Source: Candidatus Blochmannia vicinus (nom. nud.)
GTDB lineage: Bacteria; Pseudomonadota; Gammaproteobacteria; Enterobacterales; Enterobacteriaceae
Assembly: GCA_030020825.1 (NCBI GenBank)
Contig: CP125213.1
Location: forward strand, 24,379-88,378
Length of the DNA: 64,000 nucleotides
Direction: 5' to 3'
Position 1 is the first letter of the stretch. Every line of letters begins with the position of its first letter. Positions 43,071-49,818 of the stretch are shown here, in pieces. A program made the translations under genes and the position numbers. Under the pieces are notes generated by a model. The model saw only the letters and a program-made list of their open reading frames with translations, did not search any database and was not told the origin of the DNA.

Positions 43071-43856
43071 TTATAAATGTATTAGGCGTTTTTGAGCTTG
43101 TTTAGCTGCGTCACTATTAGGGTATAATTTACCTACTTGTCTATATATTGTTTTAGCTTTATCTTTTTGCTCTGTTTCTTGCATGATGATACCAATTTTT
43201 AATAATGCGTCTGATGCTTTTATTGATTTAGGATAATTTTTTACTACTAAAGCGAAATGATAAGAAGCATCATCTTTATTTCCTTTATTGTAATAAAGTT
43301 GTCCTAACCAGTAATGAGAATTAGATTGATAAATTGATTTTGGATATTTTTTTATAAAATTTTGAAAAGCTTCTATTGCTTGATTGTATTGTTTTTTTTC
43401 TAATACTAATAATACTGCTTTTTTGTAAGCAGTATCTGCATCAATTATTATTGTATTATTAATTTCTTTATTTTTTTTAGTGTTTGAGCTAATGGATGAT
43501 TTATCAGATTCATCAGTAGAATAATGTATATTGTTATGTTGTTTTAAGATATTATTTATTTTTTGACATGATTCATTTTGATTATTTATAATTTCTGATA
43601 TGTGATGTTGCATGTCTTGAATATATCCACGTAATGTGTCAATATCTTGCTGATTTTCAGCTAGTTGTTGTTGTATTTGAATTAAGCATTGACTGTGAAC
43701 ATCGGAAATTTGATGTAATTGATTAATACTTTGATTCCTGTATATTTTATTGTTTGAGTCTTTGGCGTATATAACATTATAATTTGTAATATTCACATAT
43801 TCAGTGATTAGCATGATGCTTATGTGAAATTTAAATAAAAATGGTAATAATTTCAT
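43071..43856 (-). CDS. cpoB: Cell division coordinator CpoB (YbgF)
   Basis: Coiled coil (QQQLAENQQDIDTLRG) followed by a TPR domain (F..FIKKYP.S.Y..N..YWLGQ, KASDALLKIG); directly after pal. Confidence 0.92.
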   Translation of the reverse strand: MKLLPFLFKFHISIMLITEYVNITNYNVIYAKDSNNKIYRNQSINQLHQISDVHSQCLIQIQQQLAENQQDIDTLRGYIQDMQHHISEIINNQNESCQKINNILKQHNNIHYSTDESDKSSISSNTKKNKEINNTIIIDADTAYKKAVLLVLEKKQYNQAIEAFQNFIKKYPKSIYQSNSHYWLGQLYYNKGNKDDASYHFALVVKNYPKSIKASDALLKIGIIMQETEQKDKAKTIYRQVGKLYPNSDAAKQAQKRLIHL

Positions 43857-43867
43857 TATATTAAATA

Positions 43868-44392
43868 TTATTTATATATTAATACAGCACGTCTATTTTT
43901 AGAATAAGCTGCCTCGTTATGTCCTAGTACAGCTGGTTTTTCTTTTCCATAGGATACAGTAAATATTTGATCAGATAATATACCTTTACTTTGTAGATAT
44001 AATTTTATCGAGTTAGCTCGGCGTTCACCTAATGCAATATTATATTCTGGAGTACCGCGTTCATCGGCATGACCTTCAATTTTAATACGATATGATGGAT
44101 TATTATATAAAAAATTAGCATGAATGTTTAATGTATAAAAAAATTGAGAAGAAATATCATACTGATCTAAAGGAAAATAAATAATATTATTAGATTTTAA
44201 TTCTTGTATTTTTAGTTCTAATTTTTCATCGGTTACTTTATTATTTTTTGTGTTAATCTGTGCAAACGGATTTAGTTCAATTTTTTTTTGATTATGAATG
44301 GTAGTGTGTTTGGGTAACACAGAACATGCAGTTATAATTATACTTATACTTATTGCAAATGTTAATTGTCTAAAAAAATTGTTTAATTTCAT
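43868..44392 (-). CDS. pal: Peptidoglycan-associated lipoprotein Pal
   Basis: Start set at MKLN (44392), 174 aa; lipobox [40 protein letters not shown]. Confidence 0.96.
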
Positions 44393-44453
44393 TATACGTT
44401 TATTATTCATGATTTTGTCAAATTTTTGATTGTAATGAAAACAGCTGAAGATT

Positions 44454-45839
44454 TTATTCTGCATATAATGGAGACCAAGTCGGGAATCTTATATCTCCTT
44501 GCCCTCCTTTTATATGAGCTTTAAAATGTCCATCTGCAGAAATTAATTCTAAATTAGATGTTGTTGTGCAATCTTTAATACTGCTATATACTACCATGGT
44601 ATTGTTAGGCGCTATACTAGGAGTATCAGCTAATAATACATTTGTTAATATTTCTTCTTGACCAGTTAATAAATTCAATCTAGCAATATTTTGTTTCCCT
44701 TGATGTCTATTTATCATTATTATAAATGTTCCGTCTGAACTAACTTGTGGATTTTGATTGCTAGTGTGTAGCCAAGATAATCTTTGGGCATCAGCAGTAT
44801 TTATATTAATTTTATATATTTGTGGCTTTCCTCCCTGATCAGAAGTATAGGCTATATTTTTATTATCTGGAAACCAACTAGGTTCAGTATTATTGTTTCT
44901 GTTTTTAGTTAATTGTCTAATTTCTCCAGATTCTAAGTCCATAATATATAAGTTTAAGCTGCCTGTTTTGGATAAAGCAAAAGCTATTTTTTTACAATCG
45001 GGAGAAAAAGCAGGTGCTCCATTATGATTTGGAAAATTAACAATATTATTAATTAGTCCAGTTTGTAATGTTTGGATAACAAGCTCTGAATGGCCAGAAG
45101 CAAAAGTGACATAAGCAATTTTTTTTCCGTCTGAAGACCAGGCTGGAGACATTAATGGTTCAGTTGATCGGCAAACCGAAATTTGGTTATGGCCGTCGTA
45201 ATCAGAAATATGTAATTCATAGGGGTATTTATTATCTTTGATATGCGATATATAAGCAATACGTGCACAAAATGCACCTTGTATACCGGTTAATTTTTCA
45301 AAAATTTCATTACTTATAGTGTGAGCTGCGTGACGCAGCCATTTTTTTTCTACTGAATATTGATTTTCTGAAATTATTAATGCAGGATTTCTAGAGGTGT
45401 CTATTAGGTGATATGAAATAATATAATTTCCATCGTAATTTATATGTGTTGTTCCTAATACAATAGTATTAATACCTAATTTTTCCCAAAAAGTTGGGAT
45501 TATATCAGATATTTTAGTGGGTTTATGTGGTAAATATTCTACAGGTACAGTATTAAATTTACTACTATTTCGTAAATCAGAAGCTATTATTAATGCTATA
45601 TCTTCATCTAGGTTAGATTTACCATTTTGATTATTAATATATTCAAAGGGCATTACAGCAATGGGGTGTCCAGTGTTTACTCCACATGTAATTTCAATAT
45701 GCATATCTGCTGCAAGCAATGAAAATTGGTACAAACATAATATCAACATTATTGATAGAGATGTTCGTATTAACCAGGTTTTCCATATTGGTGGTGTATT
45801 AATTTTTTTTATTATTAAATGCATTGAAAAATTTAGCAT
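44454..45839 (-). CDS. tolB: Tol-Pal protein TolB (start uncertain)
   Basis: [41 protein letters not shown] repeats of the beta-propeller. Confidence 0.95.
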
Positions 45840-45901: not shown

Positions 45902-47482
45902 TCATTGGGGAGAAAAATTTAAAATTATGTTTTTAAAAACTTCATATACATCTGTATTTGGTGGTTTAGGTATTTTTGCTGATTTAGCAGCAATAATTGC
46001 TGCTTGACATAGCGAAATATCTCCAGATATGGCGGTTATTGATAACAATGTACCATCAGGTGCTAATTTGATGCGCAGGTTACATTTTTTACCAATATAA
46101 TTAGAAGCATTGTAAAATTTTTGTTGAATTGATTCGCTAATCATGCGTTTATATGTATTAATTTCATTATTTTTAATTATATTTCCTGTAATATCATTAT
46201 GATTATTATTTGTTTTTATTATAAAGTTTAATTTAATTTTTTCGTTATTTTTTACAGACTTTTGTTTATCAATCAGTGTATTTAATAGATTGCTTAATAC
46301 GTTAGAATCATGAGGTGTGTCATTTAGTTCATTATGTACTAATGTATTTTTTGTGGATATAGTAGTGTGTTGATGTTTCTTTTTTTCAGGGATGTTATTT
46401 ATTGTGTGTCCTTCCAATGGACGTTGTGTTTCTGCAATTTTGAATCGATTTGATTGATCTTGATGTTTCTTTTTTTCAGGGATGTTATTTATTGTGTGTC
46501 CTTCCAATGGACGTTGTGTTTCTGCAATTTTGAATCGATTTGATTGATCTTGATGTTTCTTTTTTTCAGGGATGTTATTTATTGTGTGTCCTTCCAATGG
46601 ACGTTGTGTTTCTGCAATTTTGAATCGATTTGATTGATCTTGATGTTTCTTTTTTTCAGGGATGTTATTTATTGTGTGTCCTTCCAATGGACGTTGTGTT
46701 TCTGCAATTTTGAATCGATTTGATTGATCTTGATGTTTCTTTTTTTCAGGGATGTTATTTATTGTGTGTCCTTCCAATGGACGTTGTGTTTCTGCAATTT
46801 TGAATCGATTTGATTGATCTTGATGTTTCTTTTTTTCAGGGATGTTATTTATTGTGTGTCCTTCCAATGGACGTTGTGTTTCTGCAATTTTGAATCGATT
46901 TGATTGATCTTGATGTTTCTTTTTTTCAGGGATGTTATTTATTGTGTGTCCTTCCAATGGACGTTGTGTTTCTGCAATTTTGAATCGATTTGATTGATCT
47001 TGATGTTTCTTTTTTTCAGGGATGTTATTTATTGTGTGTCCTTCCAATGGACGTTGTGTTTCTGCAATTTTGAATCGATTTGATTGATCTTGATGTTTCT
47101 TTTTTTCAGGGATGTTATTTATTGTGTGTCCTTCCAATGGACGTTGTGTTTCTGCAATTTTGAATCGATTTGATTGATCTTGATGTTTCTTTTTTTCAGG
47201 GATGTTATTTATTGTGTGTCCTTCCAATGGACGTTGTGTTTCTGCAATTTTGAATCGATTTGATTGATCTTGATGTTTCTTTTTTTCTATTTTTGTATTA
47301 GGCGTTTGTATAAAAGTATTGATTGAGCTTTTATTGTCCGTGGTATTAATAGTATATTGCTGTTTTTTTGCGATTATGTGTCTATTTAATAGTAAACACA
47401 TAATCGCATGTATAATAATTGATATTATAATAGCAAATTTGAATTTTTTATTATATTTATTGAGTAAATGCACTAATTTCAT
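45902..47482 (-). CDS. tolA: Tol-Pal protein TolA with tandem-repeat central domain
   Basis: N-terminal TM helix AIIISIIIH (S..H retained); C-terminal domain KFYNAS.Y.GKKC.LRIKLAPDG...LCQAA..AAK.AKIPKPP..VYEVFKN; between tolR and tolB. Confidence 0.95.
   Translation of the reverse strand: MKLVHLLNKYNKKFKFAIIISIIIHAIMCLLLNRHIIAKKQQYTINTTDNKSSINTFIQTPNTKIEKKKHQDQSNRFKIAETQRPLEGHTINNIPEKKKHQDQSNRFKIAETQRPLEGHTINNIPEKKKHQDQSNRFKIAETQRPLEGHTINNIPEKKKHQDQSNRFKIAETQRPLEGHTINNIPEKKKHQDQSNRFKIAETQRPLEGHTINNIPEKKKHQDQSNRFKIAETQRPLEGHTINNIPEKKKHQDQSNRFKIAETQRPLEGHTINNIPEKKKHQDQSNRFKIAETQRPLEGHTINNIPEKKKHQDQSNRFKIAETQRPLEGHTINNIPEKKKHQDQSNRFKIAETQRPLEGHTINNIPEKKKHQHTTISTKNTLVHNELNDTPHDSNVLSNLLNTLIDKQKSVKNNEKIKLNFIIKTNNNHNDITGNIIKNNEINTYKRMISESIQQKFYNASNYIGKKCNLRIKLAPDGTLLSITAISGDISLCQAAIIAAKSAKIPKPPNTDVYEVFKNIILNFSPQ
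46370..47287. repeat. Tandem array: 10.2 identical copies of a 90-bp unit (30 aa, EKKKHQDQSNRFKIAETQRPLEGHTINNIP)
   Basis: Units start at 46371 + 90n (n=0-9) and a 17-bp partial copy starts at 47271. I found no mismatch between copies on line-by-line comparison. Confidence 0.98.
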
Positions 47483-47510: not shown

Positions 47511-47936
47511 CTAAGTGGCAGGATTTGTTATCATTCCAATAGAATGTACACCAATGTTACTTAGTAAACTTAATACTTTAATTATTTCATCATACGCTAT
47601 AGCTTTAGATGCAGCAATCAGACATGTTATATTAGGAGTAATATATATTTGATGACCTATTTCTGATGAAATTCGATCGAGACATATTTGCTTTATGTGT
47701 TTATTATTAATTATAAGATTATAAAGTCCCATCCCTAAAATTTCAATGGTCATTATAAGTTTTTCATTATTAATAACATTTGATGCTACTTCACTATTTG
47801 GAAGATTTACTTCAAAGCTTTGTATTAATTTAGATGGTATTATCATAAAAATTATTAAAAGAACTAATAATATATCTAAAAACGGTATGATGTTGATATC
47901 TGATTTAATAGCGCGTTTTATTCTCTGTTTCTTCAT
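47511..47936 (-). CDS. tolR: Tol-Pal protein TolR
   Basis: DINIIPFLDILLVLLIIFM with the conserved Asp; VNLP; Y..II..L.LL...GV..IG. Confidence 0.93.
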   Translation of the reverse strand: MKKQRIKRAIKSDINIIPFLDILLVLLIIFMIIPSKLIQSFEVNLPNSEVASNVINNEKLIMTIEILGMGLYNLIINNKHIKQICLDRISSEIGHQIYITPNITCLIAASKAIAYDEIIKVLSLLSNIGVHSIGMITNPAT

Positions 47937-48648
47937 GTTTATTTTCCTTATTTAGTACAGCGTCAATGTTAAAAAAAATCTGACGATATAGAATTGTGAT
48001 AAATTCTTCTATAAAATTATTATAATTTTGATCTAAATTATTTATTTGTGTAGTTAAATAATTAAATGCCATAACTGCTGGAATAGCTACGAATAAGCCA
48101 ATTGCTGTAGAAATTAATGATTCAGCAATGCCTGGTGCAATGATTTGTAAATGAATCATTTGAGTAGCAGTATTATTGGTAGTTTTACCCAATTCGATAA
48201 AAACATGCATAATTCCTAGTACGGTTCCAAATAAACCAAGATATGGACTAATGGATCCTATTGTACCAATTAATGGGATATAATCTTCTAATGTTTTTAG
48301 TTCTACATTTATTGCAGTATGCATAGTATCTAGTGTTCTGGAGATTATTATTTCAGATGAACAATTTTTTATTTGATATAGCTTATAAAATTCTTTAAAA
48401 CCTACATAAAAAATTTGTTCAGCGCCGTGTAATTTATTACGACGAGATGAAGATTTTTGATATAAACTAGCTAAATCTATTCCAGACCAAAATTCATTCT
48501 CAAATAATTTTAATTTTTTATGAGCTGTATTAAGCGCGAAAACACGATGAAAAATAATACTCCAAGATAAAATAGAGAAGCCAATTAGTATGAATATACT
48601 AATTTGTACTAAAATATCAGCTTCTAAAAATAAATCAAAAATATTCAT
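47905..48648 (-). CDS. tolQ: Tol-Pal protein TolQ
   Basis: FENEFWSG.DL..LY, GTIGSISPYLGLFGTV.GIM, IAPGIAESLISTAIGLFVAIPAV. Confidence 0.96.
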   Translation of the reverse strand: MNIFDLFLEADILVQISIFILIGFSILSWSIIFHRVFALNTAHKKLKLFENEFWSGIDLASLYQKSSSRRNKLHGAEQIFYVGFKEFYKLYQIKNCSSEIIISRTLDTMHTAINVELKTLEDYIPLIGTIGSISPYLGLFGTVLGIMHVFIELGKTTNNTATQMIHLQIIAPGIAESLISTAIGLFVAIPAVMAFNYLTTQINNLDQNYNNFIEEFITILYRQIFFNIDAVLNKENKHEETENKTRY

Positions 48649-48945: not shown

Positions 48946-49818
48946 TTATTGTATATCAATAGATTTGATATATTGACCAATGTTAGTAAAGTTATTAACA
49001 ACATGCACTCCCGATTTAGACAAAATTGCACATTTTTCGTAAGCAGTACTACCAATTCCAGAAATAATGGCTCCTGCATGTCCCATACGTTTCCCTTTAG
49101 GGGCTGTAGCTCCAGCAATATATGCAATGACTGGTTTTTTAATATATCTTTTAATATACATCGCTGTTTTTTCTTCGGATCTTCCTCCGATTTCACCAAT
49201 CATTACCATTAATAACGTTTGGGGATCTTGTTCAAATAAGGATAATATATCGATAAAACTAGAACCGAGTATTGGATCTCCTCCGATACCAACACATGTA
49301 GATTGACCTAATCCAAGATCAGTTATTTGTTTTACTACTTCATATGTTAAAGTACCTGATCTAGATACAAGCCCTACATAGCCTGGTTTATGAATATCAC
49401 TTGGCATTATCCCAAGCTTGCATTGGCCTGGAGTAATAACTCCCGGGCAATTCGGTCCAATCATACATGTATTATGTTTTTTTAATTGTTGTTTTATTAA
49501 TAACATGTCTAATATTGGAATTCCTTCGGTAATGCAAACTATTAATTTAATACCTGCATGAATTGATTCCAAAATGGCATCTTTACAAAAAGGAGCTGGT
49601 ACATAAATAATAGAAGTTGTTGCATGAGTATTATTTATTGCTTCATTAACAGTATTAAATATTGGTACTCCAAGATGAACATGCCCTCCTTTTCCTGGAG
49701 TGACTCCGCCTACAATTTTCGTGCCATATTTTAATGCTTGCTGAGAATGAAAGCTAGCGTGTTTACCAGTAAATCCTTGACAAATTATTTTTGTATCTTT
49801 GTTAATTAATATTGGCAT
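48946..49818 (-). CDS. sucD: Succinyl-CoA synthetase alpha subunit
   Basis: [29 protein letters not shown] (phospho-His). Confidence 0.98.

Follow-up and report, generated by a model that had tools for sequence, protein, structure and literature searches.

A ten-copy, 90-bp tandem array encodes a predicted disordered TolA spacer in the Blochmannia symbiont of Camponotus vicinus

Reports of tandem repeats in the tolA gene of ant symbionts go back to 2010-2015. They first surfaced in B. vafer, whose assembly had a gap at the tolA repeat that was closed by Sanger sequencing (Williams et al. 2010, PMC3017870), and were later described at 80-100 bp and 4.4-6.5 copies in five of six Blochmannia species (Williams and Wernegreen 2015, PeerJ 3:e881, PMC4389277). 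In Table 2 of the latter report, the units measure 81-102 bp and the start of the array lies between nt 199 and 215 of the gene. Two sister species, B. chromaiodes and B. pennsylvanicus, have 6.0 copies each, and the finished genome of B. obliquus has no tolA array (PMC4389277). In E. coli, the tolA tract is composed of imperfect 15/18-bp units that code for Ala and Lys and lie in the C-terminal part of domain II (Zhou, Michiels and Aertsen 2012, PLoS One 7:e47766, PMC3477136).

The bacterium studied here is the carpenter-ant gut symbiont (Blochmannia/Blochmanniella) of Camponotus vicinus. The DNA analysed was a window of 64,000 nt (contig CP125213.1, positions 24,379 to 88,378), to which all coordinates given below refer. 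The genome is a single contig of 780,225 bp with a GC content of 28.31%. The Camponotus vicinus Blochmannia genome (780,225 bp; C 13.94% and G 14.37%) was published as a HiFiasm assembly from PacBio HiFi reads (PMC10838126), and the contig agrees with it in size and base composition. The word "tolA" has no occurrences in that paper, and the array is not mentioned there.

The open reading frames and Pfam matches of the region gave the gene order tolQ-tolR-tolA-tolB-pal-cpoB (Table 1), and the array-bearing gene was identified as tolA within this cluster, as the initial annotation had proposed. The protein is a member of the TolA family: the PF06519 match scored 105 bits, the cut-off being 25, the gene order is that of the tol-pal cluster, and Ser21 and His25 of the anchor were invariant when aligned with free-living TolA, where they are S18 and H22. 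The long Ala/Lys-rich alpha-helical domain II of the family was not found in the predicted structure. This departure is genus-wide and leaves the family membership unaffected. The initial annotation had described the periplasmic domain as replaced, which holds for the central domain II but not for the C-terminal domain III, found intact by both its Pfam match and its pLDDT values (Table 1). A Speriolin_C Pfam match (E 1e-12) was rejected as a low-complexity/repeat artefact since no stretch passed on its own.

Table 1. Features of tolA and the surrounding tol-pal genes, in window coordinates
Feature	Position	Strand	Evidence
tolA CDS, 526 aa + stop	45902..47482	-	ORF; Pfam TolA C-terminal PF06519, 105 bits, E 2.5e-30; between tolR and tolB
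Tandem array, 90 bp x 10.2, TolA residues 66-371 (EKKKHQDQSNRFKIAETQRPLEGHTINNIP x10 + EKKKHQ)	46370..47287	-	Tandem Repeats Finder; AlphaFold2 pLDDT <50, without secondary structure
TolA domain I, N-terminal membrane anchor with Ser21/His25, then SINTFIQ segment	47288..47482	-	AlphaFold2 helix 3-45, pLDDT 76-88
Non-repeated rest of domain II, residues 372-430, predicted short helix 393-412	46193..46369	-	AlphaFold2; LLN.L segment conserved in the genus
TolA domain III, globular C-terminal, residues 431-526	45905..46192	-	PF06519 at 437-523; pLDDT 83-93, mixed helix/strand fold
tolR	47511..47936	-	PF02472 ExbD/TolR, E 1.3e-13
tolQ, 3' end overlapping tolR start by 32 nt	47905..48648	-	PF01618 MotA/TolQ/ExbB, E 4.6e-30
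tolB	44454..45839	-	TolB_N + PD40 beta-propeller repeats
pal	43868..44464	-	OmpA-family domain, E 1.5e-17; lipobox-like ITAC in ORF
cpoB/ybgF	43071..43856	-	TolA_bind_tri PF16331 + TPR repeats

The array itself was characterised with Tandem Repeats Finder (TRF), which reported a period of 90 bp, 10.2 copies, 100% matches, 0% indels and a score of 1836. In a script comparison, 10/10 of the 90-bp copies were identical, with 0 differences across 918 bp, and the ten identical 30-aa repeats noted earlier at this position were thus confirmed by both methods. The unit translates to EKKKHQDQSNRFKIAETQRPLEGHTINNIP, containing two Pro and one Ala in 30 residues, and has a GC content of 33.3% against 28.3% for the whole genome, in keeping with the composition first reported for it. 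Of the six reading frames, that of tolA alone runs through the array without a stop; each of the other five has 1-2 stops per unit. The final 18 bp of the array were found by script to be the initial 18 bp of the unit. The 18-bp direct repeat encoding EKKKHQ that had been taken to bound the array is therefore present, but it is a partial eleventh copy rather than a separate footprint. Genome-wide, the second-best tandem repeat scored 113, which bears out the view of an otherwise repeat-poor genome. The tolA array is the sole substantial tandem array of the 780,225-bp genome and stands far above chance and background.

To place the array within the genus, 16 genomes of 700-800 kb were surveyed, consisting of this one (G000) and 15 from the same genus. 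TRF analysis of G006, G011, G003 and G009 reproduced the published values. The periods differed by lineage (81, 87, 90, 96, 99 and 102 bp) and were all multiples of 3, and the arrays of finished genomes were 99-100% perfect. Copies were near-perfect within species and diverged between species. In a one-unit alignment, the units of all lineages fell on the same homologous segment, with the shared core [DE]Q[ST][ND]R[FL]KI[TAS] (DQSNRFKI-like). The unit of the nearest species differed at 5/90 positions, comprising four non-synonymous changes and one synonymous change, and the flanking tol genes of that species were 92-94% identical. Since 0/918 internal differences were observed against 5/90 between the nearest species, the array must either be young or have undergone repeated homogenisation, as the initial annotation had suggested. 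The idea that only this lineage had expanded its array, and had done so very recently, was considered and withdrawn because the low-copy relatives appear to be short-read assemblies prone to breakage or collapse. A likeness between the unit and the E. coli TolA segment QQQETDAKRAEQQR, just after the anchor, was likewise set aside; it had been noted by eye only, and MAFFT aligned the unit elsewhere.

Relative to the published Blochmannia arrays, the present one is alike in genus, gene, start site (nt 196 of tolA), unit size class, near-perfect copies and the homologous peptide that is amplified. All the characters of the Blochmannia tolA repeat class, namely the genus, an in-frame repeat of ~80-100 bp near nt 200 and a homologous unit, were thus found here. 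The differences are that it has the highest copy number (10.2 compared with 4.4-6.5) and the longest TolA of the genus (526 aa compared with 256-434), and that among the lineages only the C. vicinus group has a 90-bp period. The feature is the longest member of an already published repeat class, and no new category is opened. The suspicion that such repeats had already been reported in ant symbionts was correct (PMC4389277).

Further relatives were sought by sequence search. A tblastn search with the N-terminal part of TolA gave no matches beyond the two nearest clades, and a whole-TolA query against genome contigs gave no match to related loci; the relatives were therefore taken from a separate genome search. 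In the protein collection, neither homology search nor exact look-up found same-species length variants. Apart from the TolA of B. pennsylvanica, the only proteins returned were two TolA sequences of free-living bacteria, and these were used as controls.

The structure of the spacer was predicted with AlphaFold2. Residues 46-433 of TolA were modelled as coil with pLDDT <50 and no secondary structure, while a free-living TolA control, modelled with the same 10-sequence alignment, gave one long helix at 57-189 with pLDDT 82-96. The repeat-built domain II is accordingly predicted to be disordered in place of the helix, a prediction that rests on a shallow alignment of n=10 sequences. This agrees with the non-helical, possibly disordered linker that had been envisaged.

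From these data, it is considered likely that tolA of the C. vicinus symbiont carries the longest known Blochmannia array, that the array is renewed by slippage without RecA, and that it acts as a flexible and loosely constrained tether. The long Ala/Lys-rich helix joining the anchor to domain III has been lost in Blochmannia, leaving in its place a polar, predicted-disordered segment. Tandem amplification of a piece of this segment, ~30 residues in length, has produced the ten identical copies seen here. The initial duplication may have arisen when replication slipped between short direct repeats, rich in A (lysine codons), on either side of the unit, and such repeats of 7-10 bp, 87-114 bp apart, were observed around the unit in the one-copy assemblies. 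Recurrent slippage would then expand and contract the array so that the copies stay uniform within a species as the unit drifts between species, the outcome being concerted evolution without RecA. The anatomy of the array and the absence of recA both point to this mechanism: the RecA domain was not found in G000 or in 10 congeners (0/11, with controls positive in 14/14), and MutS was not found. Rearrangement of tandem repeats can proceed independently of RecA, and such a route is assumed here. Against it stands the finding that contractions of the E. coli tolA repeat were RecA-dependent (PMC3477136).

At the level of the protein, TolA retains both parts with known roles, the membrane anchor, which couples through its Ser/His motif to the TolQ-TolR proton motor, and domain III, which contacts TolB/Pal at the outer membrane. 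The array would form a flexible tether of loosely constrained length between them. A length that is not tightly constrained was deduced from G013 and G015, which have a TolA of ~250 aa without the array, and from the published absence of an array in B. obliquus, with all six tol-pal genes kept. Since the protein tolerates 0 to 10 units, drift of the copy number is more probable than tuning. This interpretation is opposed by the observation that all reliably assembled Camponotus-hosted Blochmannia, whether Sanger-closed or HiFi, carry at least five copies (5.1, 6.0, 6.5 and 10.2), the low-copy cases being matched to, or presumed to be, short-read assemblies. The multi-copy state could therefore be selected rather than merely tolerated.

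The count of ten units was weighed against an assembly artefact, in which the true copy number would be far lower (or higher) and the identical units would come from loop-walking by the assembler. Perfect tandem arrays are a classic site of such errors, and 4/15 of the related genomes visibly break at tolA. Contigs end inside the gene in G005, G007 and G014, and 31-bp duplicated joins were found there in G012, G007 and G014, the tolA copies of G007 and G014 containing in-frame stops. In G012, which corresponds to BSEQ, two SPAdes scaffolds merged by hand, the duplicated join produces a frame shift and stop codons. One copy only was found in G008, G004 and G002, and two in G010; G004 corresponds to one of the assemblies of Manthey et al. 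2022, which were made from Illumina reads with MinYS/Minia, and G002, G008 and G010 are presumed to be of the same type. It was concluded that assemblies of Blochmannia from short reads fail systematically at the tolA array, by breakage or by collapse. For the present genome, however, the length of HiFi reads exceeds 918 bp many times over and their accuracy suffices for counting 90-bp units, the tolA frame is unbroken through all copies, and Sanger-finished relatives show 4-6.5 perfect copies at the same site. An artefact is therefore deemed very improbable, and the ten-unit count, which rests on the published HiFi assembly method, is probably correct. The distortion of copy number that the initial annotation had feared is largely removed here by the HiFi origin of the data, although for the relatives assembled from short reads the concern is fully justified.

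If the count is accepted, the variation in length could still be adaptive, with frequent copy changes within and between colonies and with TolA length tuning the stability or constriction of the outer membrane. This would be in line with E. coli, where tolA repeat numbers of 2-39 modulate deoxycholate tolerance and phage fd sensitivity and change at 6.9e-5 (PMC3477136), and with the differing copy numbers of the reliably assembled Camponotus-hosted genomes, all of which carry arrays. Very close relatives also differ in their assemblies, with at least five copies in G014, six in G006 and one in G008 and G002, but the one- and two-copy cases appear to be short-read graph assemblies that collapse at tolA. 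Moreover, 6.0 copies are shared by B. chromaiodes and its sister species B. pennsylvanicus, the protein collection holds no within-species variant, and an intracellular, vertically inherited symbiont faces no bile, colicins or filamentous phage. Since every unit length is a multiple of 3, copy change cannot switch the gene on and off. An adaptive, length-variable locus was thus judged unlikely. The repeat might instead multiply a linear binding motif, the shared core, for a Tol-Pal partner such as CpoB/YbgF, through its TPR domain, or TolR, through its periplasmic domain, the tandem copies raising avidity once the helical domain II had been lost. This proposal draws on the conservation of the core, which from the anchor to the LLN.L helix is higher than that of any other stretch across lineages whose surrounding sequence no longer aligns, on the retention of the adjoining cpoB with its TPR repeats and TolA-binding trimerisation domain, and on the binding of a 31-residue piece of TolA domain II by the E. 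coli YbgF TPR domain (cited in PMC3477136). It is nevertheless quite unlikely, as the B. obliquus-type TolA of G013 and G015 has no recognisable core, yet the whole system is kept, and the four non-synonymous changes against one synonymous change between the two closest species do not suggest strong constraint. A broader proposal, that selection, acting through concerted evolution without RecA, has kept a multi-copy disordered TolA spacer in being over tens of millions of years, is regarded as doubtful; the selection could act on reach across the periplasm after the loss of helical domain II or on the multivalent display of a DQSNRFKI-type motif.

With the trustworthy HiFi count, the known upper limit rises to ten perfect copies and a TolA of 526 aa. 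Since assemblies from short reads are broken or collapsed at the array, such Blochmannia data are unfit for evolutionary inference from the length of tolA, from its calling as a pseudogene or from minor differences in genome size. The arrays present among the 11 recA-less genomes are near-perfect and would provide a clean example, in nature, of concerted evolution that does not depend on RecA. They also present a Tol-Pal machine working with a predicted-disordered spacer in place of the canonical helix. Should selection prove to be involved, the system would be a natural test of whether force transmission by Tol-Pal needs a rigid helix.

The slippage-renewed tether proposed here can be compared with three kinds of known system. 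Frame-shifting by copy change, which is a trait of bacterial contingency loci, is absent from Blochmannia tolA. The E. coli tolA repeat is also in frame and in domain II and also alters the length of the spacer between the anchor and domain III, so that it provides a precedent for TolA both tolerating and being modulated by a change in spacer length. It differs in that the present array consists of ten perfect 90-bp units, is polar and predicted to be disordered, and lies at the N-terminal end of domain II; furthermore, the support of rearrangement by RecA does not apply to a genome without recA. TonB is the paralogous energy-transducing anchor protein, ExbB/ExbD-TonB corresponding to TolQ/TolR-TolA, and its spacer is likewise non-helical, repetitive and tolerant of length change. 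The TonB spacer, however, is built from runs of Glu-Pro and Lys-Pro dipeptides that form a rigid polyproline rod, whereas the present unit has only two Pro in 30 residues and no dipeptide repeat.

The tandem array in tolA was recovered by Tandem Repeats Finder (TRF) with a period of 90 bp, 10.2 copies, 100% matches and no indels (score 1836). Script comparison found all copies to be the same, as the initial annotation had claimed for ten of them, and the observation of the array is confirmed. The 18-bp direct repeat said to bound it was also present, but since the final 18 bp of the array are identical to the start of the unit, it was deduced to be a partial eleventh copy rather than a separate boundary repeat. 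The unit has a GC content of 33.3%, compared with 28.3% for the genome, and encodes the peptide EKKKHQDQSNRFKIAETQRPLEGHTINNIP in the only one of its six frames that is open throughout, that of tolA. Its translation contains two Pro and one Ala, as described earlier, and is polar in composition, with 6 Lys/Arg, 4 Asp/Glu, 2 His and 5 hydrophobic residues. Across the genome containing the window (G000; one contig, 780,225 bp, 28.31% GC), the runner-up tandem repeat scored 113, and the tolA array was therefore deduced to be the sole real tandem array of the chromosome.

Pfam matched the TolA C-terminal domain (PF06519) to residues 437-523 of the ORF (105 bits, E 2.5e-30), and every gene of the cluster, ordered tolQ, tolR, tolA, tolB, pal, cpoB/ybgF, was likewise backed by Pfam. 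In E. coli, TolA is coupled to TolQ-TolR through Ser and His residues of the membrane anchor, and these were found to be invariant in the alignment, S21/H25 here corresponding to S18/H22 in free-living TolA. Both ends of the protein are canonical, and the central spacer, domain II, alone is unusual. The claim that the periplasmic domain had been replaced thus holds for domain II but was overstated, since the anchor and the globular C-terminal domain III are canonical and domain III is intact. AlphaFold2, supplied with a 10-sequence alignment, confidently predicted the anchor helix (residues 3-45, pLDDT 76-88) and domain III (residues 431-526, pLDDT 83-93), while residues 46-433 were modeled as low-confidence coil throughout apart from a short helix at 393-412. 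When a free-living TolA (P0002) was modeled as a control with this ten-sequence set, domain II formed a single helix (57-189, pLDDT 82-96), so the contrast between coil and helix cannot be put down to the small depth of the alignment. The predicted coil agrees with the non-helical, possibly disordered linker proposed earlier. By a rough polymer estimate, the 388-residue spacer would measure about 16 nm end to end, compared with about 8 nm for a spacer with one unit.

Coordinates in the window of tolA, its repeat array and neighboring features
Feature	Position	Strand	Remark
pal, longest ORF	43868-44464		198 aa
tolA	45902-47482	-	526-codon ORF containing the array in frame
Array	46370-47287		90-bp unit
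tolQ stop region/tolR start	47905-47936	-	32-nt overlap
sucD	48946-49818		next gene upstream of tolQ

From the position of sucD it follows that the genes found ahead of tolQ in E. coli, ybgC and the cyd genes, are lacking here; according to the literature they are missing in all Blochmannia. The longest pal ORF carries about 25 extra N-terminal residues ahead of a typical lipoprotein signal (MKLNNFF...IITAC), and the true start is probably an internal ATG. The cumulative GC skew of G000, with a minimum near 605 kb and a maximum near 220 kb, puts tolA (70-72 kb, minus strand) on the lagging strand with transcription head-on to replication, a position that could bear on slippage rates.

G000 was compared with fifteen relatives of the same genus (700-800 kb each), each array being collapsed to one unit before alignment between species. 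The same homologous segment was found to be amplified in every lineage, with a conserved core of [DE]Q[ST][ND]R[FL]KI[TAS]. The TRF periods were 81, 87, 90, 96, 99 and 102 bp; as these are lineage specific and all multiples of three, it was deduced that the arrays were founded or remodeled several times and that copy-number change is frame-safe. Arrays in the finished genomes are 99-100% perfect, while the units diverge strongly between species. Between the units of G000 and the nearest species, G012, 5 of 90 sites differ, compared with 0 of 918 within the array, which bears out the description of the array as very recent or continually homogenised. The flanking tol genes of these two genomes show 6-8% divergence, similar to that of the unit. 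By our own calculation on these difference counts, assuming equal rates, the common ancestor of ten independently diverging copies would be no older than about a tenth of the age of the G012 split, and under a ladder-like copy history this limit is relaxed to about half of that age. As near-perfection is shared by the arrays of all finished genomes that have one (about five lineages), ongoing turnover is a more plausible explanation than many coincident recent events. In the one-copy assemblies, A-rich direct repeats (lysine codons) of 7-10 bp flank the unit 87-114 bp apart and provide the microhomology that slippage requires to found a duplication.

The possibility that the ten copies are an assembly artefact, raised in the initial annotation, is unlikely for G000, as it corresponds to the published Blochmannia genome of Camponotus vicinus, which was assembled with HiFiasm from PacBio HiFi reads (PMC10838126, which does not mention tolA). 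Since the length of such reads greatly exceeds 918 bp, ten copies are very probably the true dominant allele of the sequenced sample. The concern did hold for the low counts of short-read relatives. Apparent copy numbers were two in G010, one in G008, G004 and G002, at least five in G014 and six in G006, genomes separated by a few percent protein distance within their own clades. A first reading of these numbers as rapid copy-number change was dropped in view of contig ends, 31-bp joins, in-frame stops and assembly methods. Both contig ends lie inside the tolA repeat in the one-contig genomes G005, G007 and G014 (loci L005, L008, L010 and L021-L023); these "circular" assemblies were linearised at the unresolved tolA array. 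An exact 31-bp duplication was observed at the join in G012, G007 and G014. In G012 tolA (L003, G012:C1:514377-518051, about 1507-1568 in tolA orientation), CAAATCGATTCAAAATAACAGAAACACAACG occurs twice inside the repeat, producing a frame shift and stop codons, and this disruption looks like a join artefact rather than a pseudogene. In-frame stops were also present within the "imperfect" terminal copies of G007 and G014. We take G012 to be the published BSEQ genome and G004 to be one of the Manthey et al. 2022 genomes. The former consists of two SPAdes scaffolds joined in Geneious; for the latter set, Illumina reads were assembled with MinYS/Minia/MindTheGap and graph paths were combined manually. 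Given these signs and methods, low copy numbers in such assemblies are unreliable; wherever the tolA assembly of a Blochmannia from Camponotus is trustworthy, 5-10 copies are present. This warning on short-read tolA assemblies in Blochmannia is among the most useful by-products of the analysis.

No RecA domain was found in G000 or ten congeners (G001-G010), while control genomes were positive in 14 of 14 cases, and no MutS domain was found in G000. Three UvrD-family helicase frames are left in G000 (675, 1177 and 641 aa), with sizes fitting Rep/UvrD, RecB and RecD. RecA-independent slippage and misalignment are well documented in E. coli genetics for tandem repeats of the ~90-bp class. The array was probably founded by slippage between the A-rich microhomologies; further rounds of RecA-independent slippage, or misalignment of sister strands, would keep its copies alike, and it would serve as a flexible tether under loose length constraint. 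An adaptive length locus that switches often is unlikely, there being no obvious selective agent within the bacteriocyte. A multivalent motif, in which a partner binds the repeated core, is suggested by the conservation of the core and the retention of the TPR protein CpoB but is also unlikely: the YbgF site of E. coli lies at the opposite end of domain II, the core is missing from B. obliquus-type TolA, and the unit changes relative to the closest species are mostly non-synonymous. The initial interpretation is partly supported, with the flexible tether preferred.

Contractions of the E. coli tolA repeat required RecA and arose at 6.9e-5 (PMC3477136), so the route in Blochmannia must be another one and is probably slower. 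A moderate, not hypermutable, rearrangement rate fits, because B. chromaiodes and B. pennsylvanicus share an equal copy number. The tolA arrays offer a case from nature of RecA-free concerted evolution, a further useful by-product. The suspicion that such repeats had already been noted in ant symbionts was correct. Williams & Wernegreen 2015 (PMC4389277) tabulated tolA arrays in B. turneri (81-bp unit, 4.4 copies), B. chromaiodes and B. pennsylvanicus (both 87 bp, 6.0 copies), B. floridanus (99 bp, 6.5 copies) and B. vafer (102 bp, 5.1 copies), with no equivalent in B. obliquus, where TRF gives just a 17-bp, 2.1-copy match. For G006, G011, G003 and G009, our TRF values agree with the published ones in period, copy number and score. 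Williams & Wernegreen also noted that the E. coli repeat occupies a different part of TolA and that its units are shorter (PMC4389277). The G000 array, which starts at nt 196 of tolA compared with nt 199-215 in published Blochmannia, joins this class with the highest copy number seen; its significance, as the longest member of a published class, is modest.
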